Assembly: GCA_964436975.1 (NCBI GenBank)
Contig: CAYTET010000001.1
Span: 1 to 32,000, forward strand
Direction of reading: 5' to 3'
DNA: 32,000 nt
From: an uncultured Erysipelotrichaceae bacterium
Lineage (GTDB): Bacteria > Bacillota_I > Bacilli_A > Erysipelotrichales > Erysipelotrichaceae
The notes beneath the pieces were generated by a model. The model did no database searches, was not told the origin of the DNA, and saw nothing but the letters and a program-made list of their open reading frames with translations. The translations under genes and the position numbers were made by a program. This document shows positions 1 to 24,847 of this stretch, one piece after another. Position 1 is the first letter of the stretch, and each line of letters opens with the position of its first letter.

Positions 1-1
1 T

Positions 2-1711
2 TTATTTTGTGTTACCCTCAACTCCCACTGAAACAGAATTAAACAGCGCCGTGGACAGGAAAATCTGGCCGTCGGTGATGGAAATGACATTAGTGGGAAT
101 ATAAGCTGAAATATCGCCGGCCTGGGTTTCCACGATTGGCAGAGCGGTCAAAGACCCGCCGCCCAATTCATCGGAAAGCTTGGCGCTGCGTTCCAGCAGA
201 CGGGAATGCAGATAGAAAACATCTCCGGGATAAGCCTCCCGTCCCGGCGGCCGGTGCAGCAACAGCGACAGGGTCCGGTAGGCAATGGCATGCTTGGACA
301 GGTCATCATAAACTATCAGGACATCTTTGCCCTGCTCCATCCATTCCTCGCCGATGGCACAGCCCGCATAGGGTGCCGCATACTGCAAAGCCGGCAGATC
401 AGCGGCCGAACTAACCACCACAGTGGTGTATTCCATGGCTCCGAACTGCTTCAGCTTTTCAACCAGCCGGGCCACCGTCGCGTTTTTCTGGCCGATGCTG
501 ACATAGATGCAGTAAACATTCTTATTCTTCTGATTGATGATGGTATCCACCGCAATGGCCGTTTTGCCGGTCTGGCGGTCGCCGATGATCAGCTCACGCT
601 GGCCCCGGCCGATAGGAATCATCGAGTCAATAATCTTCAGTCCCGTCAATAGCGGCTGTTTGACCGGCTGGCGGCTGATAACACCCGGCGCCAGTCTTTC
701 AATCGGTCTGCTCTTGCGAGTATCAATTTTGCCCAGGGCATCCAGCGGATGGCCCAAAGAGTCGACAACCCGGCCAATCAAAGCATCACCGACCGGAACT
801 TCCATAATCCGCTGGGTTGCCGTGACCGGCGATCCCTCGGTTATATTGTTGTCTTCATTCAGCAGAACAGCTCCGACATTGTCTTCTTCCAGGTTCATTA
901 CCATGGCACTGGCGCTGCCGACTTTCAGGATTTCACCGATCATCGCCTCGCGCAGGCCCTTGATATTGATGATGCTGTCAGAAATGCTGTAAACGTAGCC
1001 GGTGGTATTGGCCAGGGCATCGTCCAGCTCATTGCGGCTGTTCAGACCGTCCAGCTGCTGTTTTATCAGGGATGAAATATCCTTGGTATCCAGCGGGGTC
1101 TGGTAGTCATCCAGCTTCTGCTGAATCAGTTTGGTGATATCCGAGGACTCCAGGGGAGCCTGCTCGCCTATCCGCAGAAGGCTCTGCTTCAGCTGGTCCA
1201 GCTTATAGCGGTAGGAGCCGTCATAAGACTGGTTGTCAACAACGACTTTAATGCCGCCCAGCATCTTGGTATCGACTTTGCCCGTCAGCTGGACATTCTT
1301 GCCCAGCCGCTGGCTCATGGCCTGGCTGATCTGGGTTACCTGCTCAGCGGTCAGCGGACTGGCCGAATAGACCGTGCCGCGGCTGACCCGGCCGGCCTCG
1401 TCGCTTTCATTTAAAAATTCCTTCAGCGTCTTGCCGGGGATTTCCGGGTGCTGCATATCAGCACTGTCGCTGATGACATCCAGAAAGGCATCAATAAAAT
1501 CAGCATCCAGCTGCTGCTTGAATACCTGATTGATGACATTAGTTTTTTCGCTTTTGGAAATGCGCGGGTTGCACAGATACCAGTTCAGATCTTCCGACGT
1601 CTTTAACGTATCAGCCAGGGCATTGGCCCCGACCCGGTACGGAGTGGTTTTTTTCTGATCGGCAGCGCGTTTCAGCATCACCAAAGCGTTGTGTTGCGTT
1701 ACCGTACTCAT
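2..1711 (-). CDS. atpH-atpA: Fused F1F0 ATP synthase delta subunit - alpha subunit (AtpH-AtpA), runs off left edge
   Basis: One uninterrupted ORF. Residues 1-~180 end with a delta-type C-terminus ([35 protein letters not shown]). From ~191 it is alpha-like ([15 protein letters not shown]...), with alpha P-loop GDRQTGKT and [18 protein letters not shown]. No ATG at the junction. Confidence 0.93.
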
Positions 1712-2238: not shown

Positions 2239-2469
2239 TTACTGTCCTAAAACGAAGATGATCAGAAAGGAAACCAGCATGCCGTAAATAGCGCAGGTCT
2301 CTGAGATAGCCGCGCCGACAATGGCCATTGACCGTATTTTATCGGTCGCATCCGGATTCTTGCCGATAGACTCAACAGCCTGCCGGGCGACACCGGCTTC
2401 GCCGATAGCCGTCAGCATGCCGGTCATAACCGCTAAAGCGGCTCCGATTGCAACTAAACCTTTTTCCAT
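2239..2469 (-). CDS. atpE: F0F1 ATP synthase subunit c; likely start is the internal ATG of the 2239..2490 ORF (MEKGLVAIGAAL...)
   Basis: Two-helix proteolipid, GEAGVARQAVESIGKNPDA loop region, ISETCAIYG ion-binding segment. Confidence 0.93.
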   Translation of the reverse strand: MEKGLVAIGAALAVMTGMLTAIGEAGVARQAVESIGKNPDATDKIRSMAIVGAAISETCAIYGMLVSFLIIFVLGQ

Positions 2470-2486
2470 GTTTTTAATTCTCCTTT

Positions 2487-3173
2487 TCAACTTTCTTTGG
2501 GCAACGCGTTGCCAATAAAGGTAATAGACAAAGTTATGAAGATATAAACCTGCATCACTCCGGCAAACAGATCAAAGTAGAAATGCAGGGCCGGAGCTAC
2601 CACAATGCCGACAATATTGAAATTGCCGATAAGCGGTATCTTGGAGGAGATCAGGGCCATCATCTGATAGATGATTTCCATGATCAGCGAGCCGGACAGG
2701 ATATTACCGAACAGACGCAGTGACAATGACGCCCATGTCGACAGCTTATCAATAATGTTCAAAGCCAGAAACGGCGCCATCGGCTCGCACAAGCTCTTGA
2801 AATAAGCCTTGAAGCCCACCGCTCTGATACCATAAACTTCAATCATGACAACCGTAACCGTAGCTAGCGCCAGGGTTACCGAGAAGTTGGCCGTTGGGCA
2901 CTCCAGGGCAAACAGACCAGCGATGTTACATAAGAATATATAGACGGCAACTGAACCGAAATAAGGTCCCAGCTGGTCGGTCACTTTCTTATTTTTGGTT
3001 TCCTGCATCAGCATGCCATCGATGAACTGAACCAGTATCATCGTCAGCAGCACAACACCTTTGGGTTTAGATAAAGGATCAAACTTTTTAAGCTTTGAAT
3101 TGATATACAGCAGTAACAAGATGATTAAAACCGTAATCAGAAGAATATACCAGACTGTGCTTTGCACTACCAT
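2487..3173 (-). CDS. atpB: F0F1 ATP synthase subunit a
   Basis: SLSLRLFGNILSG motif with conserved Arg, multiple TM segments, operon position. Confidence 0.93.
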   Translation of the reverse strand: MVVQSTVWYILLITVLIILLLLYINSKLKKFDPLSKPKGVVLLTMILVQFIDGMLMQETKNKKVTDQLGPYFGSVAVYIFLCNIAGLFALECPTANFSVTLALATVTVVMIEVYGIRAVGFKAYFKSLCEPMAPFLALNIIDKLSTWASLSLRLFGNILSGSLIMEIIYQMMALISSKIPLIGNFNIVGIVVAPALHFYFDLFAGVMQVYIFITLSITFIGNALPKES

Positions 3174-3187
3174 AACGTCACCTCCCT

Positions 3188-3529
3188 TCAGCCTTTTTTG
3201 ATGGCGGCATCAATGATTGTAACAATCTTGAAGGCCATCAATCCGCCGAAAATGCCGAAAATATTGACATAATCAGGCCACACAGCGCCAATTGCCAAAG
3301 CCACTGCGAATACCAATAATCTTACCATTCTAGCCAAAGTTGTCAATAATTTCGGGCCGGGACCGCCGGCAATCTGATCATCGATGTCTTTGGTCAGCAG
3401 CAGCATGTACACCGCAAAGAAAGCCGTGCCTGTGATTATGCCGGCCGCCACCGGAACAGAAAAGAAAAAAGCGATGGCCGCCGCCGCCAGTGCCGCAATT
3501 ACAGAGATACGGTAAGTAGGGGTGTCCAT
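3188..3529 (-). CDS. atpI: AtpI-like ATP synthase accessory membrane protein
   Basis: Four hydrophobic segments, directly upstream of atpB in the ATP synthase operon. Confidence 0.65.
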   Translation of the reverse strand: MDTPTYRISVIAALAAAAIAFFFSVPVAAGIITGTAFFAVYMLLLTKDIDDQIAGGPGPKLLTTLARMVRLLVFAVALAIGAVWPDYVNIFGIFGGLMAFKIVTIIDAAIKKG

Positions 3530-3550
3530 CGCTAATTCCTCCTGATCTGT

Positions 3551-4171
3551 TTACTTGGTTCCGAAAATACGGTCGCCGGCATCACCCAGCCCCGGAACGA
3601 TATAGCCAATCTCATTGAGATGGTCATCCTTGGCAGCCAGGTAGATATCCACATCCGGATGCGCCTGCTGCACAACATCTATGCCCTGCTGAACGCCGAC
3701 CAGACAGACCATTTTAATGGTCTTGGCGCCATGCTTCTTAACAACATCAATGGCCGCCTTGGCACTGCCGCCGGTGGCCAGCATCGGATCCAGAATCATG
3801 ACAATGGCCTTGTCCAGATCCTTGGGGAACTTGGCATAGTATTCATGCGGCTCCAGAGTCTTCTCATCGCGGTACAGGCCGACATGACCGACTTTGGCTG
3901 TCGGAATCAGATTCTGAATGCCGCCGACCATGCCTAAGCCGGCTCTTAAAATCGGCACCAGGACAACCGGCTTATCCAGTTCATAGCCCGTGCACCCTCC
4001 CATCGGAGTGGTGATTTCAACCGGCCGCAGAGGCAGATCCTTGCTGATCTCATAAGCCATCAGGCTGGCGATCTCATCCAGATTCTGCCGGAAATCCTTG
4101 GTTCCGGTTTCAACCTTTCTCATCGTAGTCAGCTTGTGGATAATCAGCGGGTGATTCAATACGTTTACCAT
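3551..4171 (-). CDS. upp: Uracil phosphoribosyltransferase
   Basis: [19 protein letters not shown]..., [31 protein letters not shown] motif. Confidence 0.97.
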
Positions 4172-4188
4172 TTCAATGTTCCTCCCAT

Positions 4189-5412
4189 TTATTTATAAAG
4201 CGGCAGCCGGTCGGTCAATTCGCTGACCTGCTGGCGCACTTTATCTAAAGTCTGGCTGTCCTGGCCGTTTTTCAGAACCGTTCCAATCCAACTGCCGATA
4301 GCGGCAAAGTCATTTTCATCGCAGCCTCTGGTCGTCATGGCCGGAGTGCCCAGTCTGATTCCCGAAGTCTGCATCGGCTTTTCCTGGTCAAAGGGAATGG
4401 TGTTCTTATTGACGGTAATGCCGACGCTGTCCAGCAGCGTCTCGACCTGCCGGCCGGTCAGGCCGGTGCTGGCTTTGACGTCAACCAGAACCAGGTGGTT
4501 GTCGCTGCCCCCGCTGACCAGACGGAAACCCTGCTGTTTTAATGAAGCGCACAGGGCCTGGCAGTTGGCCAGAACCTGTTTCTGGTAAGCAATGAATTCA
4601 GGCTGGGCGGCTTCATAGAAGCAGACCGCTTTAGCCGCAATGATATGCTCCAGCGGACCGCCCTGCACTCCGGGAAAAACCGCCCGGTCCAAATCTTTGG
4701 CATATTTTTCCTGGCACAGAATGGCGCCGCCGCGCGGACCCCGCAGCGTCTTATGGGTCGTAGTGGTCACAAAATCAGCCGTCAGGCAGGGATTGGGATG
4801 CAGACCGGCCGCAATCAGGCCGGCCACATGGGCCATATCCACCATCATGTAGGCCCCGCAGGCATCGCAGATCTGTCTGATCCGGTCATAGTCAATGAAG
4901 CGGGAATAGGCACTGGCTCCGGCCACAATCATTTTGGGCTGGTAGGCCATGGCCTTGTCATACAGGGCATCATAATCAATCCGTTCGGTTTCAGGATCAA
5001 CGCCGTAGGCTTCAAACCGGTACAGCTTGCCGGAGAAAGACAGCGGATGGCCGTGGGTCAGATGACCGCCGGCGGTCAAATCCATGCCGAGCACCTTATC
5101 ACCCGGCTGCAGAACCGTAAAGTAAACCGCCATATTGGCCTGGGAACCGGAATGAGGCTGGACATTGGCATGGTCCGCCTTGAAAAGAGCGGCCAGCCGC
5201 TGGCGGGCAATCTCTTCGACCGTGTCAACATTGACACAGCCGCCATAGTACCGGTGGTTCGGATAGCCTTCGGCATACTTGTTAGTCAGAACCGAGCCCA
5301 TTGCTTCCCGGATTTCATCAGATACATAGTTTTCCGAGGCAATCAGTTCGATGTTGTGCTGCTGCCGCTGCTGTTCGGCATTAATGGCGGCGGCGATTTG
5401 GGGATCTTTCAT
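4189..5412 (-). CDS. glyA: Serine hydroxymethyltransferase
   Basis: [42 protein letters not shown]-lysine motif. Confidence 0.98.
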
Positions 5413-6014
5413 TCGGCCAGCTCCTTTTCTATTTCAGCCAGACTGATCTGGCCTTCTCTTAAACAGACTAATTTTTCTTTGGTGCAATCAATTACTGTTG
5501 AGGCCACATGGGAAAAGCTGGATCCGGTGACGACAGCCGCAATCCGGCCGTCCAGCTGGGCCAGCACCTGTTCATCGGTGTTAGCGGCAGGATGATCGGA
5601 CAGATTGGCACTGGTCACAAACATCGGACCGGTCAGCCGCAGAAGGGCTAATACAAAATCGTCATCAGGGATCCGGATGCCAACGGTTTTGAAACCATTG
5701 ACACTTTCATCACTGATGACGTCTTTCTTATTCAGTACAACGGTTAAAGCCCCGGGCATAAAACGAGCCGCTATGGCAGCGGTACGTGAATCAACAGCGG
5801 CCACTTCTGCCATCTGACTGACATCGGCAACCATTAAGGGAAAAGGTTTGTGGGGATCGCGTCCCTTGGCCTGCCGCATCAGCTCAACAGCCGCCAGATC
5901 ATCATAGCGGACCCCGATGCCGTAAACCGTATCGGTGGGAAAAGCGACAACCTGACCGCTGATAATTAAAGAAGCGGCCTTTTGGATCTCTTCTCTGCTC
6001 AGCACCAGTGTCAT
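5409..6014 (-). CDS. L-threonylcarbamoyladenylate synthase, Sua5/YwlC/YrdC family; probable start [11 protein letters not shown] inside the longer ORF 5409..6074
   Basis: [37 protein letters not shown] motifs; ATGA overlap with glyA. Confidence 0.9.
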
Positions 6015-6094: not shown

Positions 6095-7189
6095 CTATTC
6101 CTGGGCCTGGGCAATGCTCTGGCGCAGGATCCGCATAATGGTGGCGGCGCCGGCGCGATTGGGATTGATGCGGATCATTCGCTTCTTTAAAGACGGATCC
6201 ATCTTCAGGAAAGTGCCGCTGACCTTATAGAACATCGGAGCCAGCTCATATTTGGATTCGGCGCCCACCGGATTGGGCAGGGCGCCTAATTCAGCCGCCC
6301 GGGCTAAAACCGCCTCGGCGATATCATCTTTAAATTCCACCAGCAGAACCTTGGACTGGCTGTTGGCCAGAAAAGCGTCCTTGATCTGGGGAATGGCCGC
6401 CGCCTTAAGCTCTTTGACCAGCTTCTCATTCTGCTCGGCCTGCACTGCCAGCAGAACCGGAGCACTGACCAGACCGCGCAGAACTTCCATTGCCTGCCAG
6501 CCCTGGACTTTAGAACCGCCGGAGTAATTCATTTTATCAATGCGTTCAATAATATCCTTTCGGCCCACAACAATGCCGACTCCCTCCGGTCCCAGCAGTT
6601 TAAAGGATGAAAAGGCAGAGATGTCAGCACCGCATTCAACGCCGATTTTTTCAACCTTCATCACGGCATAGTTGTCATCAACGATGACCGGAATGTTTTT
6701 TTCCGCCTTGATCGTCTTTATGACATCGGCCAGCTGATAGCTGTCAGAGGGAACCTGACGGGTGTGCTGCAGAAGGACTACATCGATATTGTTGCTCTTA
6801 AGCGCCGCCGTGATACTGGCAGCTTGATTGAAATCGGCCCGGACAATCCGCAGATTCAAGCCCTGCAGTGTGGTTTCACTGCTGGGGTAGATGGGTGCCT
6901 GGTGAACCAGGATAGTGCTGTTGGGCTTAACCGCTCCCATCAAGGCCCACCGGATAGCTCCGGTGCCGGCTCCGGTCACCAGCTGGCAGGCCTGACTGCC
7001 GAAGAAAGCCGCAATGACCCGCTCCGCCTTGGCGGCCGTCTGCGGCTTGTTGATTCCGGCTGTACAGCCCAAATCACCCAGGCTGAGTGACGCGGCGCCC
7101 GCAAATTCTTTTGTGATGCAGTCAACCAGGGCGAACTGCTTTTCTTCCGCCTGGGTCAGGGAGATGCTGTGTAAAGGATAAGTCTTCAT
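6095..7189 (-). CDS. yhfS: YhfS-like PLP-dependent aminotransferase-fold protein
   Basis: PLP-lysine segment SAFSSFKLLGPEGVG, DDNYAV; same order and strand as yhfT/yhfU. Confidence 0.8.
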   Translation of the reverse strand: MKTYPLHSISLTQAEEKQFALVDCITKEFAGAASLSLGDLGCTAGINKPQTAAKAERVIAAFFGSQACQLVTGAGTGAIRWALMGAVKPNSTILVHQAPIYPSSETTLQGLNLRIVRADFNQAASITAALKSNNIDVVLLQHTRQVPSDSYQLADVIKTIKAEKNIPVIVDDNYAVMKVEKIGVECGADISAFSSFKLLGPEGVGIVVGRKDIIERIDKMNYSGGSKVQGWQAMEVLRGLVSAPVLLAVQAEQNEKLVKELKAAAIPQIKDAFLANSQSKVLLVEFKDDIAEAVLARAAELGALPNPVGAESKYELAPMFYKVSGTFLKMDPSLKKRMIRINPNRAGAATIMRILRQSIAQAQE

Positions 7190-7234
7190 AACGATCTTTC
7201 TCCTGTCTTTTTATACGATACCGATAAAAGGAAA

Positions 7235-7291
7235 CGGACGTCAATCCTTTTAGATACATCATCGTATCCGCCGAATCAGAATTGACGTCCG
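7235..7291 (-). repeat. Perfect 11-bp inverted repeat with nested 5-bp stem between yhfT and yhfS
   Basis: CGGACGTCAAT (7235-7245) ... ATTGACGTCCG (7281-7291), inner GATAC-atcatc-GTATC (7253-7268). Confidence 0.8.
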
Positions 7292-7325
7292 CTGCTAATA
7301 TCAGGAAATGATAATCAGATTACGG

Positions 7326-8609
7326 CTAGGCTACAGTATACAGGCCGACTAAAGCCAGTATATTGATGACAACGCCGACAATGATCATTGCAATCGGGCC
7401 GACGGCCAGACGGGTAATCGGCTTTTTGAAATACTCATTCATGACAAAGAAGGCCGAGACAATCAGGAAGCCATAGCCGGGAGCCATGCCTTCGGCAGCA
7501 TACATGGAGCCGACCAGCAGAGCAACTTCCAGCAGTTTTGTCATCGCAACCCGCATATCATCACCCAGCTTCTTGAAAGCCGGGAACTTGTCAAACAGCT
7601 TGGCAATCCAGACCAGACCGAAAGCTTCCAGCGACATGGTCAGAGCACCCAGAATGGCGGCCACAATGGCATTGGGAGCCAGCAGACCGACCGTGGCCGT
7701 AAAGCCGATACCGTCAGTAACAAAGGTTCCGGTCATGATGCTTGTTAAACCCTTCAGAGGAATAAAACTGAGCGCCCGGGCGATCGTAATGGGAATAGCC
7801 GAACTGATGTTGCCTTCACCTACGGCAATCAGCGACTGCGGGCCTTCCATCAGCAGACCGATATTGCAGGCCACGCCGTAAATGGCGCCCATCGCGGCAA
7901 TCCAGCCGATATTCTTGCGGATGTTGCCGATGCGGTCAGCAAAAACAGTGGAAAGATTGGTGCTCTTCTGACTCTTGTCGAGACCGGCAAAAATCATAAC
8001 AATAATCAGACCGGCCAGCATGGTGATGCCATCGGCGATGCCGGAATTGACAATTTCCATGATGGATCTGATTAATACCACAATGCCTAATGAGCCAAGT
8101 CCCTTCTTCCAGCCGTAATCCATAGCGATAACCACGCACGGGAAGACGCTGAAGCAGGCGATGACAGGATTGGAAATCTCCTGCCAGGAATTGAAGATGT
8201 TGACCGGCAGTTTGGCCGCCAGATCAACTACGGACTGCAGGCCGCTCAGCAGCAGAACGCCATAAACGCCGCCGGCTAAAGCTGCCAGCAGGGAGAACAG
8301 CAGACTCTTGTTGTTCTTATACCATTTGTCACTCATGTCAGCCGGGAAGGCAATGCCGATGATATCGGTGCCCAGCCACAGGCAGTGGACCAGAATGATG
8401 CTGTACATCAGCGAATACGGAATACCGAAACCGATAACCAGACCAAAACTCAAGCCAAACGTCGTGGCCAAAAATTCACCGTGTTTCAACCGCCCCTCGC
8501 GGTACTCCGGTACAATCGGCCTGACTGCATCGTTGAAGACAGCGATGCCGCGGTTAGCTTCGAAGGCGCCCATGGCACCCGCTAAAAAGATAATAATATA
8601 ACGTAGCAT
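7326..8609 (-). CDS. yhfT: YhfT-like polytopic inner-membrane protein
   Basis: 427 aa, about 11-12 hydrophobic segments, position between yhfS and yhfU homologues. Confidence 0.78.
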   Translation of the reverse strand: MLRYIIIFLAGAMGAFEANRGIAVFNDAVRPIVPEYREGRLKHGEFLATTFGLSFGLVIGFGIPYSLMYSIILVHCLWLGTDIIGIAFPADMSDKWYKNNKSLLFSLLAALAGGVYGVLLLSGLQSVVDLAAKLPVNIFNSWQEISNPVIACFSVFPCVVIAMDYGWKKGLGSLGIVVLIRSIMEIVNSGIADGITMLAGLIIVMIFAGLDKSQKSTNLSTVFADRIGNIRKNIGWIAAMGAIYGVACNIGLLMEGPQSLIAVGEGNISSAIPITIARALSFIPLKGLTSIMTGTFVTDGIGFTATVGLLAPNAIVAAILGALTMSLEAFGLVWIAKLFDKFPAFKKLGDDMRVAMTKLLEVALLVGSMYAAEGMAPGYGFLIVSAFFVMNEYFKKPITRLAVGPIAMIIVGVVINILALVGLYTVA

Positions 8610-8664
8610 ATTGTTAATCCCCTTTTCTTTTTTCCTGCTTTATGATTTCCTGCCGCCCAATGTC

Positions 8665-9045
8665 TCAGCCGGTCACCTCCGCATCCTTTTCCAGATAATG
8701 ATTGATGATGACGGGTACGACCCGCTTTATATCTTCAGGCACCATGCCAAAGGCCTGCTTGCCCTCATCAATTCCCTTGCATATTTCTTCTTCGCCAAGC
8801 ATCCGTCCCGGCATGCTGACGGTCAGGCATTTACCGTAGCCGATGATGGCAATGGCCATCGCCAGCGCTCCGCCGCCGCCGGTATCGCAGGCTCCCAGAT
8901 ACAGATCTGCGGTGCCGCTTTTAATCTCCATGGCCGCTTCAATATCGCCCATTACCCGGCATTCAATCCGGCCGGCGGCTGTTTCTTCGGCGGCTTTCAA
9001 AATCTCTTCCTTGGCCAGCTGGCCTCCAATAACGATTTTCAGCAT
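8665..9045 (-). CDS. yhfU: YhfU-like protein (DUF2620 type); probable start MLKIVIGGQ inside longer ORF 8665..9081
   Basis: Small glycine-rich protein YLGACDTGGGGALAMAIAIIG; operon context. Confidence 0.75.
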   Translation of the reverse strand: MLKIVIGGQLAKEEILKAAEETAAGRIECRVMGDIEAAMEIKSGTADLYLGACDTGGGGALAMAIAIIGYGKCLTVSMPGRMLGEEEICKGIDEGKQAFGMVPEDIKRVVPVIINHYLEKDAEVTG

Positions 9046-9053
9046 TGTCTGTT

Positions 9054-9401
9054 TCAGCCCTCCCTGTTCATCAGATTGCACAGATGCATGATCATAAACT
9101 GCTTCTCACTTTCCGGAAAAACCACCGGCGCCGGCTGGCTGATCTGTTCAAACAGCACGGCCGCATTCTGGTAATATGGCGATCTGACAACCTGCTGCCA
9201 GATATCAGCACCCAGCTGACCGGCCGGCTCATTGTTTTTTATCCGCTGGCTGGCCATGGCCAGGTGGGTGGTGAATACTTCCATTTTGCGCTGGTCATAA
9301 TCCGCGGCAGTCAAAAAATCAATGATCTGATTGGTATACTCCGCCACATCATCATCGATAACCCCGGCCGTCTGAAGAAGTTTAACGCGCTGTTTCAGCA
9401 T
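9054..9401 (-). CDS. yhfY: PRD-domain protein, YhfY-like; start uncertain (ATG at 9401 or TTG at 9410; the ORF track start at 9509 falls in a terminator)
   Basis: MLKQRVKLLQTAGVIDDDVAEYTNQIIDFL ... HLAMASQRIKNNE, typical PRD His region. Confidence 0.65.
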   Translation of the reverse strand: MLKQRVKLLQTAGVIDDDVAEYTNQIIDFLTAADYDQRKMEVFTTHLAMASQRIKNNEPAGQLGADIWQQVVRSPYYQNAAVLFEQISQPAPVVFPESEKQFMIMHLCNLMNREG

Positions 9402-9494
9402 AATATTCAAAATTTTGTATATTGTTCCTGCCCTTATAATAGTTTGCCCGGGCTGACTTGTCAATGCCTTGAAAAAATAAAGCGCCCCTGACCG

Positions 9495-9516
9495 CAAAAA
9501 AACGCCCAAAGGCGTT
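9495..9516 (-). terminator. Rho-independent terminator downstream of yhfZ
   Basis: Minus strand AACGCC-tttg-GGCGTT followed by T tract (plus strand A8 at 9495-9502). Confidence 0.7.
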
Positions 9517-9563
9517 TAGCAACAGGCAGCAGCTCCCGACCGGCCGGCTGGGCGCTGATTATT

Positions 9564-10490
9564 CTAATAGCTGGGAATGCGCTGGCCGGTTTCAACGCTG
9601 TGCTGGATGCGCAGTATTTCATCCCGGTCAATTATCCGCTTCAGCAAAAGGCCAATGATCGGCTCGTCTTTTTTGGTAATAATGACGGCATTGGTATCTT
9701 CTGATTTGCCGTAAGAAACCGGCACGCAGTGCACATCACTCATTTTCTCGATTATCTCATCCTCATTCCAAACCGTCGCATCCAGATCCCCGCTCTGAAC
9801 CAGTGACAGCAGCCGGTTGTACTCCACCGGACAGTACTGGACTGTTTTGCCGCGGCAGGCATTGTGCGTCATATCGCTCTGGTCAATGGAATCGGCATCA
9901 ATGCCGATCCGCATGCCGTCTTTGATGGCGCTGTCGGCCGGATTATGGAAAATGATTACATGCGACGAGCAGTATGTGCCGATGCCGAATTCACAGACGA
10001 TGTCGATGCTGTCGGCATGCTGACGGATATACTTTTTGGCCGCATATTTAGAGACAACCGCAAAATCATAGCGGTTTTCCAAAACCATGGCGATCCGGTT
10101 TTTGGCTCCCCGCATATAAGACAGGCTGACCGGAATCTCATCCTTGTTTTCCATTTCACTGATAAGACCGGTGGCCAGGCCTTCGTATTTTTTTGAATAT
10201 GGCAGCGGCATGGCCCCGACCAGCATTTCAATGCCGGCAAACTCTAAAAGGATGTGGTCGTTCTTCTGCGTCAGAAAGGAACCCAGATAACCCCGGCTGG
10301 TGATATGGATAGCCTCATTGTCCTGCAGGGTGCGGATGGCCGACTGCACTGTTCCCCGCGAGATCTGCAGCTTTTCGCTCAGCTCGGTGACAGTCGGGGT
10401 CTTAGCCAAAACCGCGCAGATTAAAAATTCTTTGGCAATGCTTTTAACGGCCAGGCCGTTCTTGCTCATTAAGATGTTTTGATAATCCAT
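9564..10490 (-). CDS. yhfZ: YhfZ-like transcriptional regulator: N-terminal HTH plus periplasmic-binding-like C-terminal domain
   Basis: TVTELSEKLQISRGTVQSAIRTLQDN HTH; C-terminal segment YDFAVVSKYAAKKYI; operon context. Confidence 0.75.
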   Translation of the reverse strand: MDYQNILMSKNGLAVKSIAKEFLICAVLAKTPTVTELSEKLQISRGTVQSAIRTLQDNEAIHITSRGYLGSFLTQKNDHILLEFAGIEMLVGAMPLPYSKKYEGLATGLISEMENKDEIPVSLSYMRGAKNRIAMVLENRYDFAVVSKYAAKKYIRQHADSIDIVCEFGIGTYCSSHVIIFHNPADSAIKDGMRIGIDADSIDQSDMTHNACRGKTVQYCPVEYNRLLSLVQSGDLDATVWNEDEIIEKMSDVHCVPVSYGKSEDTNAVIITKKDEPIIGLLLKRIIDRDEILRIQHSVETGQRIPSY

Positions 10491-13720: not shown

Positions 13721-15737
13721 TCAGTTAAAGCTGCGGCCGTTGAGCAGAATCTGCTCGTTATACTGCCGCAGATATTTTTTAAGCTGCTCCAGATCCATTC
13801 CGTCCAGCAGCATCTTGGTTACAGTTTCGTCTGAAACGGTAATGTTTATGAGGTGGGGCAGCGACTCATTTTCAAAATTGTTAGCCTCGGATGTGACCAG
13901 GCCCCGGTCCCAGTAGACAATGATCTGGGCCTTGTGCAGTTTCCACTGAATAGCCTTCTTCAAAATGAAGATGCCCACAAACACCTTGGCGGTATGCCCT
14001 TCCAAAGGCGTCAGGTAAACAACATTGTTAAGGTCCATGCTCTGAAAATAGCGCTCGGATTTCAAAAGCGAATCATAGACCCCTTTTTTGGTGGCTGATC
14101 TGGCTTCAACATAGGATGCAATATAGCGGAAAACCTCATCCTTATTCTTAGCCGGCAGACCGTTTTCAATGCTGATTCCCTCATTCATATAGACATGATT
14201 GGAAATGCCCTTGGAAGCAATGTGCTGAACGATAGTCCAGCGAATCTGCTGCTTTTCCTTCTCGCTGAAAAAGACGTCGGTATTGATGACGGTTATATTA
14301 GATGGCATGATAGGCAGGGTCTGAGACGGTACGGAGGTAAAGACAAAATCATAATGTGAAAGGTCAAGATTATGCAGTTCATAGATATTGCAGGGCACAA
14401 AATCCTGAATCTTTCCGCCAAAATTACGCTGCAGTCTTTCGGCCATGCCCTTGGCAACCGATTTATTTACCTGGGAAACCACCAGAGCCTTGGCTGACCG
14501 GAAACTGAAGGGATAGCGGCCGAATACCGGATGAATCAGGCAGGCCAGCTTATAGATTTCATCAGCATCAAGTTTAATCTTGTACTGCTCCTCCAGAAAT
14601 ACGGCCGACTGAATAGCCAGTTTGCGGGCCATCAGACCCAGCGGAAGACCGGACAGCCGGTAGTTAGTGTGCAGATGAAACTCCATCCGCATGCTTATCT
14701 GCAGCAGATTCATGCTGATAGTATCAATCAGTTCCATATCTTTGCCGATATAATCAAAATCGTTGATATCGTGCAGGTAGTTTGAAACCGCAAACGCCAT
14801 CTCGCGGCAGGTCAGATAGTTCTCCCTGAGGGGGAAATCAGAGGGCTGCAGCATATTGCGGTTGGCAATAATGAAGATCGCGATATAAATATCATCGCAG
14901 GTATAAAAGGCCGTCTTGAGCAGTTCCGCGGCTTTTTTAGTTATAATTTTAGCCGTGTAATAGGAATTGCGGGCCAAAAAGCGGTCCTGGACATCATCAT
15001 CATAACTTAGCCGGTAACCCTGCCTGTTGCGCTGGCCCATAATGTAAATGCTGCTGGCCAGACTGGCAATTTCAGTGTCGGACAGGTCATTGCGGGAATA
15101 AGCATCCACATTTTCCAGCACAATCTGCTGCAGAGCATACATTGTCTCTTCCGGCATCTGGTATAAGGTCCCGTAGTCTTCAGCCAACTGCAGCTGGCAG
15201 CGCTGATAATAGTAGTTTTCACAGTTCAGGCAGGCCCGGATGTCAGCTTCCCTGCCATCGATATACAGACCGTGCTTGCTGCGGGTCTTAACTTCAATCG
15301 CAAAACCAGCCAGAATCTCTTTGGCATTATTGTAGTCATTCAGCACCGTCGTCCGGTTCAGGTACATCAGTGATTCCAGATCCTCGATCCGGCTGTATTC
15401 TTTCTGGCAGAGCAGGTAGCGGACGATCAGGTGGGCCCGCTGCTCAAACAGCGGAATCATCTGGTCGGTCTGATTATCATAGGCGCAGGCTTTGATGTAA
15501 TTGTCCAGCTTGGCTTCGTCATTGACGATCAGAAGATAGCCGGCCCCGGACCGGCAGTCCAGTTCTGCCCCGTTTTCTTTAAGCTTGTCCTGCATGTCCG
15601 CCAGAATCGTGCGGATTGTCTTGCTGGAAAAACCCAGATTGCCGGCAAAAAAAACCGGAACTCAGCCGCTGCTGGCGGTCCCGCATCAATTCAACTATTT
15701 TGATCTGAATCCGGTTCAGCTGTTCTGCCATATTCAT
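13721..15737 (-). CDS. PRD-containing transcriptional regulator/antiterminator family (BglG/LicR/MtlR-like). Intact ORF is 13721..15595; its HTH start is encoded out of frame up to about 15737
   Basis: 624-aa ORF with PRD-like helical repeats, EIIB-like segment (YDFVFTSVPSQ) and EIIA-like tail. Upstream frame encodes MAEQLNRIQIKIVELMRDRQQRLSS, joined to FFAGNLGFSSKTIRTILADMQDKLK only by removing one T from a T8 run. Confidence 0.75.
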
Positions 15738-16403: not shown

Positions 16404-17462
16404 TCAGTCAAGGCTGCCGAATTCCTTCTGCAGATCAACACACTGAAACTTTTTATCATAGTCATAGATCAGCTTTTCAACCTGCGGCTGCAGGGTCTGA
16501 TCAAAAAGGAAGTAATCAAGGTACTCATAATGCCGGCCGCGGGCGCTGTTGACCACCGCTCCCTGACCGGCCAGCAGTTCCGTCAGCCTTCTTTCCATGG
16601 TATCGCGCAAAGCCTGGTCAGCCGCATTATTGCCGACTGTCCGCTTGAAAACCAGAGAATAGTAACCGACGCCGCATGAAATGACGTAGGCGGTTTTATA
16701 GTGATTGGCCTGCTGCTGGTCATTGAGCAGATCAAGGCAGTAGGAAGTCCCCTGGTAAATATCCTTGCGCACTTCATTTGACCGGGCGGCCGTCTCATAA
16801 CTGTCAGCCACCAAAGTAATGTCTTTGGGCAGCGTCCAGCTGCTGGCAGCACAGGCGTTGAGCATATAACTGTCCAGCTCATCTAAAGCCATGATCTGAC
16901 CTTGGTGCAGCAGACGCCCCAGCCGGGTCAGCAGCCCGATTCTGCCGATATAGGCTTCGGTGGCCAGTTCACCGATATAATCCTGCAGCAGCAGGAATAA
17001 AACCGTATAAGTATCAGCCGGAACAAAACCGGCAAAATGTTTTTGATTGGAAAAATCAACATCGAACCTTTTTCTTTTCTTATCCACACTGACCGATACC
17101 TTCATCGCATGGCCGTCAAACTGGCGCTGCTTGTATTCCAAAACTCCCTTATAGGCATGATGGTAATAGTTAAAATTCCACAGCCCCTTCAGACAGGGAT
17201 CCATCTGATCGCACAGATACTTGAACAGCACAAACTTGCTGCCGTCACTGCCGGCATTGAATTCCAGAATATACCGCTTTTCCGCCGCAGGCTTGTAAAG
17301 CCGGAAGATGGCCTGCCCGATGACCGGTTCTAAATGCTGGTGCATGACCGCCGCCGCCTTTTCAAAACTGCCTTCATCAAGCAGGGCTGAAATTTTCTGC
17401 TGGTTGGATGCCAGCCACTGGCTGAAAGTCTGGCAGCGCTGTCGGTAATCGGGAGTCATCAC
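16404..17462 (-). CDS. Hypothetical protein, 352 aa
   Basis: Long ORF with RBS (AGGAGG) before the start; no family recognised. Confidence 0.7.
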   Translation of the reverse strand: MMTPDYRQRCQTFSQWLASNQQKISALLDEGSFEKAAAVMHQHLEPVIGQAIFRLYKPAAEKRYILEFNAGSDGSKFVLFKYLCDQMDPCLKGLWNFNYYHHAYKGVLEYKQRQFDGHAMKVSVSVDKKRKRFDVDFSNQKHFAGFVPADTYTVLFLLLQDYIGELATEAYIGRIGLLTRLGRLLHQGQIMALDELDSYMLNACAASSWTLPKDITLVADSYETAARSNEVRKDIYQGTSYCLDLLNDQQQANHYKTAYVISCGVGYYSLVFKRTVGNNAADQALRDTMERRLTELLAGQGAVVNSARGRHYEYLDYFLFDQTLQPQVEKLIYDYDKKFQCVDLQKEFGSLD

Positions 17463-17546: not shown

Positions 17547-18350
17547 TTAAGCTAAAAAGCCGATAGCGCCTAACAGAATACCTACTGCAATAATAATCCA
17601 AATCATCTTGGTTGAAGTCATCTTTTTCAGACCCAGGCCCCAATAAATCAGGGCGACAGCCACAACGTTGCCAAAATGAGGGACAATGGTGTTCAGCAGA
17701 TCATTCAGATTCTGGGAGACTTCCCCGATAGTGAAGGTCAGGCCGAATTTGACATTGACCGTAGAAGCCACCAGCGCACCGACGACGGTAATGCCGACGA
17801 TGGAGGCGACTTCAGTCAGATTATGCAGCTGGGCCGTCCGGTTAGTAACAAAGGAAACACCCTGGTCATAAGCAACATAGAACAGTCTGTTGAAAGTAAA
17901 CCAGATCACCAGTTGGACTGCTTCGGCAATGACCCAGCCGAAGATGTTGCCGGCTAAAGCCTGATAGGCGGCAATAGCCCCGAAGATAGTCGGGAACAGA
18001 ACCCAGATGATGGCATCGCCGATACCGGCCAGCGGGCCCATCAGAGCAGTTCTTAACTCAACAGCTGTAAAGGTGGCATCATCGCTCTTGCTTGACTCAA
18101 TGGCCAGGCAGGCTCCCAGCACCAGGTTGCCGCACCAGGGATGCGTATTATAGAATTTGAAATGGCTTCTGTATTTTTCTCTGAGAACTTCGTCATCGCC
18201 ATAAATCTTCTTCATGGCCGGATGAATGGACCAGACCCAGCCGCCCGACTGCATTGTTTCATAGTTGAACGGTGCCTGCCGGGTCCAGATGTATCTGTGC
18301 AGAACCTGCGATAGATCTTTTTTGGTCAGAACGGAATTGTTGTTACTCAT
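17547..18350 (-). CDS. PTS mannose/fructose/sorbose family EIID component
   Basis: MSNNNSVLTKKDL..., NTHPWCGNLVLGACLAIE, MGPLAGIGDAIIW; overlaps EIIC end. Confidence 0.93.
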   Translation of the reverse strand: MSNNNSVLTKKDLSQVLHRYIWTRQAPFNYETMQSGGWVWSIHPAMKKIYGDDEVLREKYRSHFKFYNTHPWCGNLVLGACLAIESSKSDDATFTAVELRTALMGPLAGIGDAIIWVLFPTIFGAIAAYQALAGNIFGWVIAEAVQLVIWFTFNRLFYVAYDQGVSFVTNRTAQLHNLTEVASIVGITVVGALVASTVNVKFGLTFTIGEVSQNLNDLLNTIVPHFGNVVAVALIYWGLGLKKMTSTKMIWIIIAVGILLGAIGFLA

Positions 18351-19134
18351 CTTCGTTAGCTCCTCCCTTAACGGCATTCTGCTGAATAGCCGCCATTTTG
18401 TCGTTATTCTCCAGATACAGATAGATTATGTAGGCAACTACGGCTGCCAGACAGGCAATGGCCAGCATCGGCAGATTGGCATAGGCATACAGCACAAAGC
18501 CGAAGACCAGGAAGATGCCCCATTTTTTGACCGGCAGATACTTCATCAGAATCGCAAAGCCCAATCCAGGCAGCAGACCGGCGCAGACTGACAGGCCGTT
18601 CATCAGCCAGCCAGGAATAGCCGCTATCATCGAGTTGATAAAGTGGGAGCCGACAGTCATAACTAGCAGCACCGGCAGGGTATAAAGCAGGGAACGGGCG
18701 ATCATCCAGCCCCAGACCCAGAAGGTCATGCCCTTCCAGTCGCATTTCTCACTGCAGGCCATCTCGCGATGGATGAACAGTGAACCCATCATCTTCATTA
18801 AAACGTCAAACTCGGTTCCTAAAGTGGCAACCGGAATACCGACAGCCAGACCGGCTTCAATACCGCTGCCGGATGAGATGGCAAACAGCGTGCCGACGGT
18901 TGTTCCCAAAGCATAATCCGGAACAGAAGATCCGCCGTAGCCGCCGATACCCAGACCCATCAGACACATCGTGCCGCCGACAGTAAGTCCGGTGGTCACA
19001 TCGCCCATGATCAGACCGATCACAAAGCCATACAATACCTGTACCCCGTAAGCGAAAACCTGCGCGCTCCAGCCAACCAGTGACATTACGAACACGAACA
19101 GGCAGCTTAACAGGATCTGCATAAATGTAAACAT
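18343..19134 (-). CDS. PTS mannose/fructose/sorbose family EIIC component
   Basis: Polytopic, GGTMCLMGLGIGGYGGSSVPDYALGT; gene order. Confidence 0.9.
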   Translation of the reverse strand: MFTFMQILLSCLFVFVMSLVGWSAQVFAYGVQVLYGFVIGLIMGDVTTGLTVGGTMCLMGLGIGGYGGSSVPDYALGTTVGTLFAISSGSGIEAGLAVGIPVATLGTEFDVLMKMMGSLFIHREMACSEKCDWKGMTFWVWGWMIARSLLYTLPVLLVMTVGSHFINSMIAAIPGWLMNGLSVCAGLLPGLGFAILMKYLPVKKWGIFLVFGFVLYAYANLPMLAIACLAAVVAYIIYLYLENNDKMAAIQQNAVKGGANEDE

Positions 19135-19176
19135 ATGTACACCTCTCCTTTTCTTTTTTCCTTGTTCAGCAAACTT

Positions 19177-19677
19177 TTAATCCAGAATAGTTGTGCAATG
19201 CGTAATAGGATCTTCCGTGCGGAACTGGCAGTCAATTTCGATACCGGCATCCCGCATTTCTCTCAGCATCTGCTTTTCATCATCATTAATCCGCACCGTC
19301 TTGGCTAAAACCAAAGTCGGATGCAGATTCTGGGTGACATCACCCAGGTTGAGCCGCTTGAACTTGACGCCGCCTTTGAAGATCTCATAGATGTCCTGAA
19401 TCTGCCGGCCGACAACAAAGACCCGCTGACCGGCATATTTATTGACCCCGAAATTTTCAATCGCCTTGCTGGGCGAGATACATGACAGGGCAACTCCGAC
19501 CGGAGTGGCCATTTTAATTGTGGAGCGGATCATATCATTGTGGGAAACGCTCTCGTTTATAACCATAGCCCGGGTGGCCTTGAGTTCGGGAATCCACTGG
19601 GTAGCGACGATTCCGTGAATCATCCGATCATCAATGCGGACATCGATAATGCCGTTTTCTGTTTCGTAGCTGTTCAT
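19177..19677 (-). CDS. PTS mannose/fructose/sorbose family EIIB component
   Basis: VRIDDRMIHGIVATQWIP phosphorylation-site motif. Confidence 0.93.
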   Translation of the reverse strand: MNSYETENGIIDVRIDDRMIHGIVATQWIPELKATRAMVINESVSHNDMIRSTIKMATPVGVALSCISPSKAIENFGVNKYAGQRVFVVGRQIQDIYEIFKGGVKFKRLNLGDVTQNLHPTLVLAKTVRINDDEKQMLREMRDAGIEIDCQFRTEDPITHCTTILD

Positions 19678-19718
19678 AGCTCCTCCTTTCTCTCACCAAT
19701 ATCCTGGTTTCTATTAAA

Positions 19719-19737
19719 GATTCTACCGACTAGAATC
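19719..19737 (-). promoter_or_regulatory. Perfect 7-bp palindrome GATTCTA-ccgac-TAGAATC about 40 nt upstream of EIIB start; operator or 5'UTR hairpin candidate
   Basis: Seen directly in sequence. Confidence 0.55.
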
Positions 19738-19779
19738 ACAGAATGGCATAAAAGGAAATGGCTTGATTTTGCGCTTTTC

Positions 19780-19793
19780 TGACAGCGCTTTCA
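19780..19793 (-). promoter_or_regulatory. cre-like (CcpA) operator upstream of PTS EIIB-C-D genes
   Basis: TGACAGCGCTTTCA (reverse TGAAAGCGCTGTCA) fits TGWNANCGNTNWCA at all positions. Confidence 0.75.
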
Positions 19794-19893
19794 GTCAAAA
19801 CAAGCCCGATTTACGGTCATTGCGGCAATCACTGTAACTAAAAAGCACCTTATTGTTTACTTTAGGTTGACGCCATTTGATAACCGGGCGGAC

Positions 19894-19918
19894 AAAAAAA
19901 CCGCTTCAGGATAAAGCG
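19894..19918 (-). terminator. Terminator downstream of EIIA gene
   Basis: Minus strand CCGCTT-tatcctg-AAGCGG followed by T7. Confidence 0.85.
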
Positions 19919-19946
19919 GCTGTGGCTGACATAATTGGCTGATTAT

Positions 19947-20357
19947 TTATTCGTCCTGATCGCCAAATGATTCAAATTTATAATCGTTCATGCAGACGGC
20001 TCCGTCTTTGCCGGCTTTCTCTAGGGCCTTGATTTCTTCCGCTGAAGCATCCGGCGGCAGGCAGCTGGCCTGGATAAGCATCGGCAGATTCATGCCGGAA
20101 AAGATAAAGGTGTCCGGCCGGCTCAGCTGGGGAATGACAAGCTGATTGACGCTGCCGCCCATGATATCCGTGAATATCAGCACCTGATCATCAGTCGCCG
20201 TCTGCTCCCAGAAGCGGGCCAAGTCAGCCTTAGGATCACAGTCATCCACGTAGGCACTGATGGCACTGTAGTTTTCTTTCTCCCCGATAAACAGCTGCAG
20301 CGAATTAAGCAGTCCTTTGGCCATGCCGCCATGGCTCAGCAGCAATATCTTTCTCAT
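19947..20357 (-). CDS. PTS mannose/fructose family EIIA component
   Basis: ILLLSHGGMAKGLLNSL, IFTDIMGGSVNQ. Confidence 0.9.
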   Translation of the reverse strand: MRKILLLSHGGMAKGLLNSLQLFIGEKENYSAISAYVDDCDPKADLARFWEQTATDDQVLIFTDIMGGSVNQLVIPQLSRPDTFIFSGMNLPMLIQASCLPPDASAEEIKALEKAGKDGAVCMNDYKFESFGDQDE

Positions 20358-22046: not shown

Positions 22047-23342
22047 TTATTTCTGCTGCCAGTAACCGGTCTTATTAGAACCCTGATGAATCAGACAGCC
22101 CTGACTGACAAGCTGCTTTATGGCCCGGTATATCGTACTCTCCGACACCTGAAGCATCTTGGCTAATTCACGGCGGCTTAAGGACGGATTCTCTTTTAAC
22201 TTTTCCAGTATCTTCTCATTCAGCCTTTTTGAACCGGTCTCATCCAATTCATTTGTTCCCCCGTTTGGACCGCCGGCAAAAGGGATTCTCACTTTGATAA
22301 AGTTTTTAGAGAAGCTGAAGACGTTTCTGTCATATACACGCAAAACCCTTCTTATTCCGGTTCCCAAAAACTCCACCAGTCCCAGATCATGAAACACTCG
22401 CATCAGTTGCGGATTCACCGACAGTGAAAAACCTCTGAAGAAATCTTCTTCACTGTAATTATCCGGCAGGCCGCCAAAAGAAGATATCTCAGCATAGCTG
22501 TCGAACACCTCGAATTTCGGCAGACCGCCGTCAACATAGTTATTATGAACAAAGGCATTAATTATCACTTCCCGCATGGCAATACCATCAAAGCGTCTGA
22601 CTTCCTGGCGCTGGCTGCCGGTTATTCTGGTATAAATGCAGTTTTCAGCCTGCATTCTCTGCAGAACCTGATCAACCGAAGTTATGACAGACTGATTGAT
22701 AAATTCGGCCCTTGCGGTAAGATCGAACACATCGTTGCCCCGGTATTTAGCAAATTGAAAGGGCAGTCCGTTTTCGTCGGCCAGAAGATAAGCCAGATAG
22801 TTATACAAACCATCTGCGCTGTATAGGCCGAACTGCTGATATAAATTAGGCCCTATTTCGCAGCCTTTATTGCGATAATAGATTTCCAAGGCTGAAAAAT
22901 GCAGATCCTGACGGGGCGACGTCTTAGTAGAAAGAGTAATCTTGTTCCTCTTCTGATATAGAGCAAAAATCATATCTTCCGGCATTTTTTCAACCGCTGT
23001 ACCAATTCTTATAAATGTCCCTTCCGGAGACATTCCCAAACGGCTCAGATAATAAGGCTTCTGATTTCCGGAAGAGACCATTACCTGAATATACTGCCGA
23101 TCCCCCTTTTTTAGCTTAATTATGTCAAATAAGCCCAGCGCTGACGGTTTGATTTTGTTCTTCAGACGGTCTTTTATTTTCAGTTCGGTTTCATCAACAT
23201 CAGGCACTCCGACAACCGTACCGCTGTCAGAAACGCCAATGTAAATACTGCCGCCGCCTTTTGAATTTAAAAAAGCGATGACTTCTTTTTCAAATTTATC
23301 ATTTAAAACTTCCTTAAATTCATTATGTTCATTTTCTATCAT
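22047..23342 (-). CDS. AlbA_2/Schlafen-type putative DNA/RNA-binding protein with C-terminal HTH; probable start MIENEHNEFKE inside ORF 22047..23417
   Basis: NEFKEVLNDKFEKEVIAFLNSKGGGSIYIGVSDSGTVVGV; C-terminal SRRELAKMLQVSESTIYRAIKQL. Confidence 0.85.
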   Translation of the reverse strand: MIENEHNEFKEVLNDKFEKEVIAFLNSKGGGSIYIGVSDSGTVVGVPDVDETELKIKDRLKNKIKPSALGLFDIIKLKKGDRQYIQVMVSSGNQKPYYLSRLGMSPEGTFIRIGTAVEKMPEDMIFALYQKRNKITLSTKTSPRQDLHFSALEIYYRNKGCEIGPNLYQQFGLYSADGLYNYLAYLLADENGLPFQFAKYRGNDVFDLTARAEFINQSVITSVDQVLQRMQAENCIYTRITGSQRQEVRRFDGIAMREVIINAFVHNNYVDGGLPKFEVFDSYAEISSFGGLPDNYSEEDFFRGFSLSVNPQLMRVFHDLGLVEFLGTGIRRVLRVYDRNVFSFSKNFIKVRIPFAGGPNGGTNELDETGSKRLNEKILEKLKENPSLSRRELAKMLQVSESTIYRAIKQLVSQGCLIHQGSNKTGYWQQK

Positions 23343-23369
23343 TATCAGCACCTCTGTCTCGGCTATTCC

Positions 23370-23405: not shown

Positions 23406-23414
23406 CGGCTGCAA

Positions 23415-24845: not shown

Positions 24846-24847
24846 AA

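Follow-up and report, generated by a model that had tools for sequence, protein, structure and literature searches.

The fused gene and its occurrence

The stretch of DNA analysed here, referred to below as the window, comprises the first 32,000 nucleotides (nt) of contig CAYTET010000001.1 (assembly GCA_964436975.1) from an uncultured Erysipelotrichaceae bacterium, and opens within an ATP synthase (atp) operon carried on the minus strand. The delta and alpha subunits of this ATP synthase are encoded there by a single open reading frame (ORF; window 2..1711, minus strand, 569 amino acids), which reads from delta into alpha in one frame. An earlier note, made from the sequence letters, had described a full delta domain continuing into alpha with neither a stop nor an ATG at the junction, and had seen in this a conflict with the three alpha and one delta subunits of F1. 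Pfam domain matches and the absence of any in-frame ATG, GTG or TTG between amino acids (aa) 150 and 257 of the ORF confirmed the in-frame fusion, and with it supported the central reading of that note.

The OSCP/delta family PF00213 matched at aa 14-178 over profile positions 11-172 of 172 (94.2 bits, cut-off 22.3), a match above the gathering score that covers both delta's N-terminal helical bundle and its C-terminal domain. In the alpha part, Pfam placed the beta-barrel (PF02874) at aa 237-299 and the nucleotide-binding P-loop domain (PF00006) at aa 357-559; the helical alpha C-terminal domain (PF00306) was found in the full-length proteins P0121, from the same species, and P0002, a relative, and the gene holds the position of alpha before gamma and beta. 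The NCBIfam atpA equivalog TIGR00962 was reached even by the shortened window copy (554 bits, cut-off 484.45), with scores of 736 and 747 bits in the relatives P0002 and P0037, respectively, and its match on the window protein opens at model position 3, corresponding to aa 208. The Walker A motif GDRQTGKT was invariant across alignments of the fused clade. The delta equivalog NF009975 (PRK13436) was not reached (90 bits, cut-off 129), the delta domain being divergent from that model. We also considered an N-ATPase (alternate F1Fo) or a Mycoplasma F1-like ATPase and rejected both, since the proteins scored below the cut-offs of TIGR03324 (485-611 bits versus 750.5), NF045863 (368-464 versus 600) and NF045936 (266-343 versus 520). 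We know of no N-ATPase with a delta subunit, which is present in this operon.

The earlier note had let the ORF end at window positions 2-4, and this part of its description did not hold. Window positions 1-33 (TTTATTTTGTGTTACCCTCAACTCCCACTGAAA) are unrelated to atpA and stand where the rest of the gene should be, and the ORF breaks off at the point where every alpha reads on as GxRPAVDxGLSVSRVG. Three independent metagenome assemblies of the same species (L016, L017 and L018), which agree with the window at 99.9% identity across as much as 11.7 kb and show no mismatch inside the gene, encode a 721-aa protein (P0121) that includes the alpha C-terminal domain, and the genes atpG, atpD, atpC and a DUF1146 gene come after it. 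P0121 falls in the same 90%-identity cluster as the window protein, and the identical 721-aa protein was present on 9 contigs. As the terminal 33 nt are non-homologous and the protein in the same-species assemblies continues to 721 aa, the stop at positions 2-4 was ruled out as the true gene end. No repeat or insertion-sequence end matching positions 1-33 was found elsewhere in the window, and the comparison indicates that they are either a contig-end artefact (a chimeric end) or a strain-specific junction or edge of an insertion. Because the same-species assemblies are intact, the loss of the C-terminal part of alpha from the window copy reflects an artefact or a strain junction and lies outside the finding reported here.

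Sequencing or assembly error at the junction itself could be ruled out. The two other frames across the junction are full of stops, and a single-base insertion or deletion therefore cannot account for the fusion; moreover, the 351 nt spanning the junction (window 950-1300) were 100% identical in the three independent assemblies. A stop or start between delta and alpha in relatives or other assemblies, the outcome that by the earlier note would have overturned its claim, was looked for and not seen. One open frame ran from delta to alpha in all 16 relative loci, 14 species and the closest relative (L001) among them, and among 5.8 billion proteins searched, over 115 clusters (680-721 aa) combined PF00213 with the alpha domains at 52-73% identity to the query, the exact sequence of one relative occurring on 156 contigs. 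The operon order, read where the flank was long enough, was atpI-a-c-b-[delta-alpha]-gamma-beta-epsilon, and each of 20 loci (272 kb in total, the scan covering these flanks and not whole genomes) contained exactly one delta and one alpha.

Among GTDB species representatives, a scan with one strict peptide pattern found the fusion in 14 species, a lower bound for the taxonomic range as the pattern missed the window's own species. Most of these carry the label of uncultured Erysipelotrichaceae or Erysipelotrichia metagenome-assembled genomes (MAGs), one record being labelled Anaerovoracaceae bacterium and one species 'Candidatus Colivicinus equi'; the named sources are goat, sheep, roe deer and horse guts, and isolates labelled 'RUG' derive from the rumen. 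Public annotation conceals the fusion, several of the proteins being named in NCBI only as 'F0F1 ATP synthase subunit alpha [Erysipelotrichaceae bacterium]'. In a search of 1.84 billion representatives, only this family covered the delta-to-alpha profile, the remainder of the top 150 matches being free deltas of about 180 aa; fusions devoid of the delta N-terminal domain would not rank among these 150. Because one family alone spans the profile among these matches, the fused genes probably form a compact clade that arose in a single fusion event. On sequence grounds, then, this is a genuine and evolutionarily fixed translational fusion of a complete delta to a complete alpha in a clade of uncultured gut Erysipelotrichaceae.

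Two database entries of the family are only 611 aa long (P0090 and P0087). We rejected P0090 as a natural N-truncated form, as it derives from a frameshifted contig of 2.6x coverage (L020), on which, within positions 2328-5836, two ORFs stand in the place of atpB and a separate 72-aa ORF holds the delta N-terminal domain.

Table 1. Features of the atp operon at the start of the window (coordinates in window positions).
Feature	Position	Strand	Remarks
atpH-atpA fusion gene	34..1711	-	holds aa 1-559 of the 721-aa protein; no mismatch to L016, L017, L018
Delta N-terminal domain, canonical six-helix bundle	1397..1711	-	aa 1-105; Pfam, PS3 alignment, AlphaFold2, dN/dS
Delta C-terminal domain	1172..1396	-	aa 106-180; Pfam match to position 172/172; aligns to the delta part of 9jc1_I
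Short linker IGEQAPLE	1148..1171	-	aa 181-188; AlphaFold2 coil, pLDDT <50
Extra copy of the alpha N-terminal helix	1091..1147	-	aa 189-207; insertion relative to 65/67 relatives
Authentic alpha N-terminal helix and connector	1004..1090	-	aa 208-236; start of the TIGR00962 match; AlphaFold2 helix at aa 209-225
Alpha beta-barrel and nucleotide-binding domain with GDRQTGKT	35..1003	-	aa 237-305 (barrel, PF02874) and aa 306-559 (PF00006)
atpF, b subunit, 173 aa	1708..2229	-	Pfam ATP-synt_B; its stop overlaps the fusion start (ATGA), likewise in L016
atpE, c subunit, 76 aa	2239..2469	-	Pfam ATP-synt_C; Glu in helix 1, ISETCAIY in helix 2
atpB, a subunit, 228 aa	2487..3173	-	Pfam ATP-synt_A
atpI, 113 aa	3188..3529	-	Pfam ATP-synt_I
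Non-atpA sequence making the false stop at 2-4	1..33	.	homology to L001 and L016-L018 stops at position 34

The delta domain and the junction

The delta part of the fused proteins resembles a free delta over its whole length. A profile of the fused clade aligned to residues 6-177 of the 178 residues of Bacillus PS3 delta (E = 4e-25), and also end-to-end with mitochondrial OSCPs; of the short Chloroflexus delta (9itj_S) only the C-terminal domain aligned (profile positions 109-175 to residues 89-154). Consistent with this, AlphaFold2 (AF2) produced six helices in the N-terminal domain and the usual sheet-plus-helices fold in the C-terminal domain, with a predicted local distance difference test score (pLDDT) of 77-93 in the model of P0037. 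A DGSY motif was invariant in the delta C-terminal domain across the clade alignments; in known enzymes this domain is the one that binds the b2 stalk. The ratio of nonsynonymous to synonymous substitution rates (dN/dS) was 0.05-0.30 in the N-terminal domain, 0.04-0.46 in the C-terminal domain and 0.02-0.11 in alpha, and reached 0.95 in the linker and the alpha N-terminal helix. The substitution pattern indicates that both domains of delta are under purifying selection and, along with the alignments and the model, points to a delta that is complete and functional.

The closest unfused arrangement that we compared, in locus L019, has an atpH stop codon, 12 nt containing AGGTGA, and the ATG of atpA, where the fused genes instead have 6-10 variable, acidic residues; this comparison indicates that the L019 arrangement is the ancestral state. 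The L019 alpha is 66% identical to the window alpha by blastp and 53% by tblastn. In its present record (L019 6340-8046; P0113, 568 aa) this unfused alpha contains an exact internal repeat of about 57 aa, which is probably an assembly duplication.

The earlier note had put the linker at about 10 aa. A short linker does exist, but in the window protein it is followed by two segments that resemble the alpha N-terminal helix (aa 189-202 and aa 209-225), so that 59 aa separate the last delta helix from the alpha barrel. This distance was 34-38 aa in 52 of the 67 sequences compared, equivalent to a full alpha N-terminus and a short linker, and 28 aa in 13 others, in which the alpha N-terminal helix is shortened; only the window species (59) and P0002 fell at 59-60 aa. 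Each of the two is similar to the N-terminus of alpha in PS3, E. coli and L019, and AF2 predicts a helix for each. Their likeness to each other was matched by 2 of 5,000 shuffles in the window species and by 1,275 of 5,000 in P0002. The repeat thus looks like a lineage-specific tandem duplication of the delta-binding N-terminal helix of alpha, carried by the window species and P0002 and significant only in the former. The duplicated helices could serve a cis-docked delta C-terminal domain and a delta N-terminal domain, one each.

The N-terminal helix of alpha is normally a conserved element that binds delta. In the fused clade it was the most variable of the aligned segments (2.23 bits, versus 1.49-1.75 for delta and 0.68 for alpha), and its variability, together with its shortening in 13 of 67 sequences, is as expected if a covalent tether replaces non-covalent binding.

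Known multi-stalk enzymes and the stalk number of the fused enzyme

For a long time, c-ring size was taken to be the sole determinant of the ion-to-ATP ratio in rotary ATP synthases. Two studies from 2025 reported that the number of stalks and a-subunits also sets this ratio, and that delta's N-terminal domain decides that number (PMC12229609, PMC12002316). In one of them (Ueno et al., Nat Commun 2025), residues 2-104 of PS3 delta were deleted and residues 105-178 fused to the alpha N-terminus (PMC12229609, PDB 9JC1), which yielded an enzyme with up to 3 stalks and 3 a-subunits and an H+/ATP ratio of 5.8 versus 3.0; of the three alpha N-termini in the wild-type enzyme, one contacts the delta C-terminal domain and two contact the N-terminal domain (PMC12229609). 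The same paper describes natural delta-alpha fusions devoid of the delta N-terminal domain in Acidaminococcus (A. fermentans D2RLW6, also G4Q3K6 and A0A1I2C5T3; Discussion and Supplementary Fig. 9 of PMC12229609). In the other (Zhang et al., PNAS 2025), the Chloroflexus aurantiacus enzyme was found to have the composition alpha3 beta3 gamma epsilon delta2 a2 b4 c10, with two stalks (PMC12002316). A survey of atp operons from 2017 had reported a delta/b fusion as the only one (PMC5709465).

Against this background, the earlier note is in part out of date. It had named the mycobacterial b-delta protein as the known fusion; that fusion is real, but the Acidaminococcus and the engineered 9JC1 fusions were reported in 2024-2025. 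The new stalk architecture that it envisaged now has direct precedent in multi-stalk enzymes (PMC12229609, PMC12002316), and the structural novelty is smaller than it had claimed, since delta-alpha fusion as such was already known. What is apparently undescribed is a natural delta-alpha fusion that keeps the full delta N-terminal domain, and the clade that carries it: neither a full-length delta-alpha fusion nor the Erysipelotrichaceae clade was found described in the literature searched, which did not cover all journals.

The engineered enzyme is the nearest counterpart. Chain I of 9JC1 was the best match to the fusion region in the PDB, by sequence and by fold; as in the window protein, a short linker connects the C-terminal end of delta with the N-terminus of alpha, and every alpha has a delta C-terminal domain. 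Residues 2-104 of delta are missing from 9JC1, whereas the natural protein keeps a conserved N-terminal domain, and 9JC1 assembles up to three stalks and a-subunits, whereas the natural fusion is known from its genes. The same distinction holds for Acidaminococcus: as judged from the published description, it shares with the window a natural in-frame delta-alpha fusion within the atp operon of an anaerobic gut or rumen member of the Bacillota, with a multi-stalk enzyme proposed, but lacks the delta N-terminal domain that is present here. The window gene therefore has the in-frame fusion through a short linker that marks this type and departs from it in retaining the N-terminal domain. Acidaminococcus is a Negativicute, and an independent origin of the two fusions is therefore likely, given the different lineages.

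Other known systems are further removed. The natural F-type enzyme of Chloroflexus exceeds one delta per F1 and one a-subunit; its delta is free, however, and has a shortened, four-helix N-terminal domain that dimerises, in place of which the window protein has six helices. The mycobacterial fusion (7JG5 chain d, 8J0S chain d) likewise joins delta to another part of the enzyme in a stalk fusion, and its delta part is detectably homologous; there, the partner is b and not alpha, so that the 1:1 stoichiometry is respected, whereas in the window b is a separate 173-aa gene and delta starts at aa 1 of the ORF with no b coiled coil before it. The canonical Bacillus-type operon (L019; PS3, 6N2Y) has the same gene order and domain set, with a delta homologous over its whole length, and differs in having an atpH stop, a 12-nt Shine-Dalgarno spacer and an atpA ATG in place of the 6-10 coding residues.

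By analogy with the engineered enzyme, we tentatively favour an enzyme capable of carrying several stalks, with an obligate fusion and cis docking of delta. [quoted passage not shown] Additional b2 and a modules could bind there, something that took place spontaneously in the engineered enzyme. Two or more peripheral stalks could be present, each with an a-subunit, and more stalks would mean more ions per ATP (ions per turn being the product of the numbers of c-subunits and a-subunits; Ueno et al. 2025). Of the three N-terminal domains of delta, no more than one would sit in the central cavity, the others being displaced or packed above the crown.

A template-free AF2 model of P0037 superposed on chains I, J and K of 9jc1 over 573-576 columns, with a target-normalised TM-score of 0.79-0.83 and a root-mean-square deviation (rmsd) of 4.8-5.4 Å. 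The query-normalised TM-score was 0.70, versus about 0.59 for plain alpha chains, so that the model places the delta C-terminal domain on its own alpha as in the engineered fusion. The geometry was read from this model, as the first one, of P0121, was too poor for that purpose (pLDDT 64.7, rmsd about 14 Å). With a confidence of 50-60 in the linker, the superposition speaks for the feasibility of cis docking and is not proof of it; every alpha most likely carries a delta docked in this way.

Several points weigh against more than one stalk, or against the grounds on which we favour it. The two 2025 studies argue that the canonical N-terminal domain of delta, placed on the pseudo-threefold axis, holds an enzyme to one stalk (PMC12229609, PMC12002316). 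In the fused clade this whole domain is kept and conserved, and the central cavity has no room for three copies of it, which speaks against a plain triple-stalk version of 9JC1. AF2 may merely reproduce in cis the known intermolecular interface between delta and alpha, it reaches a confidence of no more than 50-60 in the linker and the alpha N-terminal helix, and its model of the window species' own protein is the poor one, at pLDDT 64.7. Finally, the fused enzyme is so far a matter of genes from uncultured MAGs, for which the scan for a second atpA or atpH covers flanks and not whole genomes, and the proportions in which a and b are expressed are not evident from sequence.

The retained N-terminal domain also speaks for an obligate fusion with a single stalk, in which one delta would engage b2 and place its N-terminal domain in the central cavity while the other two stayed idle over the F1 crown. 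A fusion of this sort would be tolerated or mildly useful, guaranteeing the supply of delta and a covalent link of the stator to F1. The six-helix domain that is kept restricts stalk number to one according to the two 2025 studies (PMC12229609, PMC12002316), the space above F1 is unobstructed, and a and b are each encoded once in the operon, no duplication being apparent. We nevertheless regard a single stalk as somewhat less likely than several. In the engineered enzyme, no more than a tethering of the delta C-terminal domain to each alpha was needed for extra b2 and a to be recruited; with a single stalk, binding of the central N-terminal domain in trans would still fall to the alpha N-terminal helix, which is the least conserved segment and is shortened in one subgroup; and two useless 20-kDa domains per enzyme would be costly to maintain across a deeply diverged clade.

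Alternatively, the alpha3:delta1 ratio could be restored after transcription, through a non-canonical internal start, through cleavage in the acidic linker with turnover of the surplus delta, or through an unlinked second atpA. The earlier note had offered internal initiation as such an escape, and our results did not bear it out. No ATG, GTG or TTG at the junction was conserved across lineages, and the window, L004, L009 and L011 had none at all. Shine-Dalgarno pairing energies were 0 to -6 at candidate sites in the junction and -4.6 to -15.9 at true atp starts, with the exception of the GTG-called atpG of L015, for which no pairing was seen (+1.3). The best junction site in the window species, a weak GGAG located 9 nt before an ATC codon (I192), pairs at -5.9, like the weakest true starts, but is not conserved. 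In addition, the synonymous rate (dS) was not depressed at the junction, and there is therefore no sign of an overlapping signal. With no conserved start, no Shine-Dalgarno site and no lowering of dS, internal initiation is disfavoured.

Cleavage would be helped by linkers that are flexible, acidic and of low AF2 confidence, and hence accessible to proteases; the clade alignments, however, held no conserved linker motif usable as a cleavage site. A second atpA (another escape that the earlier note had named) or atpH was absent from the 272 kb of flanking DNA of the 20 loci, and the best unfused alpha (P0113, 66% identity) belongs to another organism with a separate delta of its own; as the search was confined to flanks and whole genomes were not checked, an unlinked copy elsewhere keeps some room. 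Taken together, we consider a restored ratio rather unlikely, and infer that the fusion is obligate, all three alphas of the F1 head carrying their own delta.

An origin of the fusion in faulty sequencing or assembly, or its reading as a pseudogene in decay, is highly improbable: although the window copy has a premature stop at positions 2-4 and no alpha C-terminal domain, and some database entries are split or short (e.g. P0090, 611 aa), the stop lies inside 33 nt of unrelated terminal sequence, three same-species assemblies (99.9%) give an intact 721-aa gene, the fusion is kept at 52-73% identity with dN/dS well below 1, and the 2.6x contig of P0090 has several frameshifts.

For the multi-stalk-capable enzyme with cis docking, one specific form would be a probably Na+-coupled ATPase with three full-length deltas on its alphas and two or three b2 stalks, each with an a-subunit, and hence a multiplied ion-to-ATP ratio; we hold this full picture to be possible but rather unlikely. 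If true, it would be the natural counterpart of the engineered triple-stalk enzyme, and a multi-stalk enzyme with a delta N-terminal domain would contradict the rule by which that domain limits stalks to one. A widespread clade in which each alpha is covalently joined to a whole delta puts this rule to a natural test: if the enzyme accommodates the N-terminal domains and has several stalks, it would represent a new architecture, by which gut bacteria living from fermentation could operate at low ion-motive force in a new way, and if two of the three deltas are idle, it would show how large an excess over the usual stoichiometry the machine can bear.

The operon and its surroundings

The window contains no second delta- or alpha-like sequence, and an Rfam scan of it gave no match. 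Beyond atpI, the series continues with upp, glyA and a Sua5/TsaC-like gene. Two observations concern the Fo genes of the operon. The c subunits of the fused clade (window 2239-2469, minus strand; L002-L018 and L020) carry a Glu in their first helix (AIGEAG, for example) and the sequence ISETCAIY in their second, while that of the unfused L019 is of the Q...ETTGIY type. The two-carboxylate Na+ site of Fusobacterium nucleatum consists of E32, E65, S66, T67 and Y70 (PMC3692424). Compared by eye, the c subunits of the fused clade match four of the five side-chain positions of this site, which hints at Na+ coupling. The atpB gene has the strongest Shine-Dalgarno sequence of the operon (GGGAGGTGA; window 3174-3193, L016 8519-8538), at -15.9 kcal/mol versus -4.9 to -10.3 for the other atp genes, and such a strong site was not seen in L015; the a subunit encoded by atpB is normally the least abundant Fo subunit.

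A cluster of yhfZ, PRD, DUF2620, yhfT and yhfS-like aminotransferase genes (window 6095-10490, minus strand) is located immediately upstream of the tsaC-glyA-upp-atp block and is kept in L016 (1222-5617). Further along the window, two minus-strand ORFs of 624 aa (13721-15595) and 352 aa (16404-17462), for which no Pfam family was found at E <= 1e-5, adjoin a mannose-family phosphotransferase system operon (IIA, IIB, IIC and IID; 17547-20357). A protein with Schlafen AlbA_2, HATPase_c_4 and HTH domains (22047-23417, minus strand) is possibly a defence or mobile-element gene, as may be a 377-aa protein whose sole Pfam match is HNH_4 (30057-31190, plus strand) and the methyltransferase that follows it (31180-31770). 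Finally, a 459-aa protein with Fer4_20 and Pyr_redox_2 domains is encoded beside a 325-aa DHODB-type Fe-S partner (23466-25825, minus strand); ferredoxin:NADP oxidoreductases of the NfnAB or sulfide-dehydrogenase-like type have this architecture, which fits an anaerobe that lives by fermentation.

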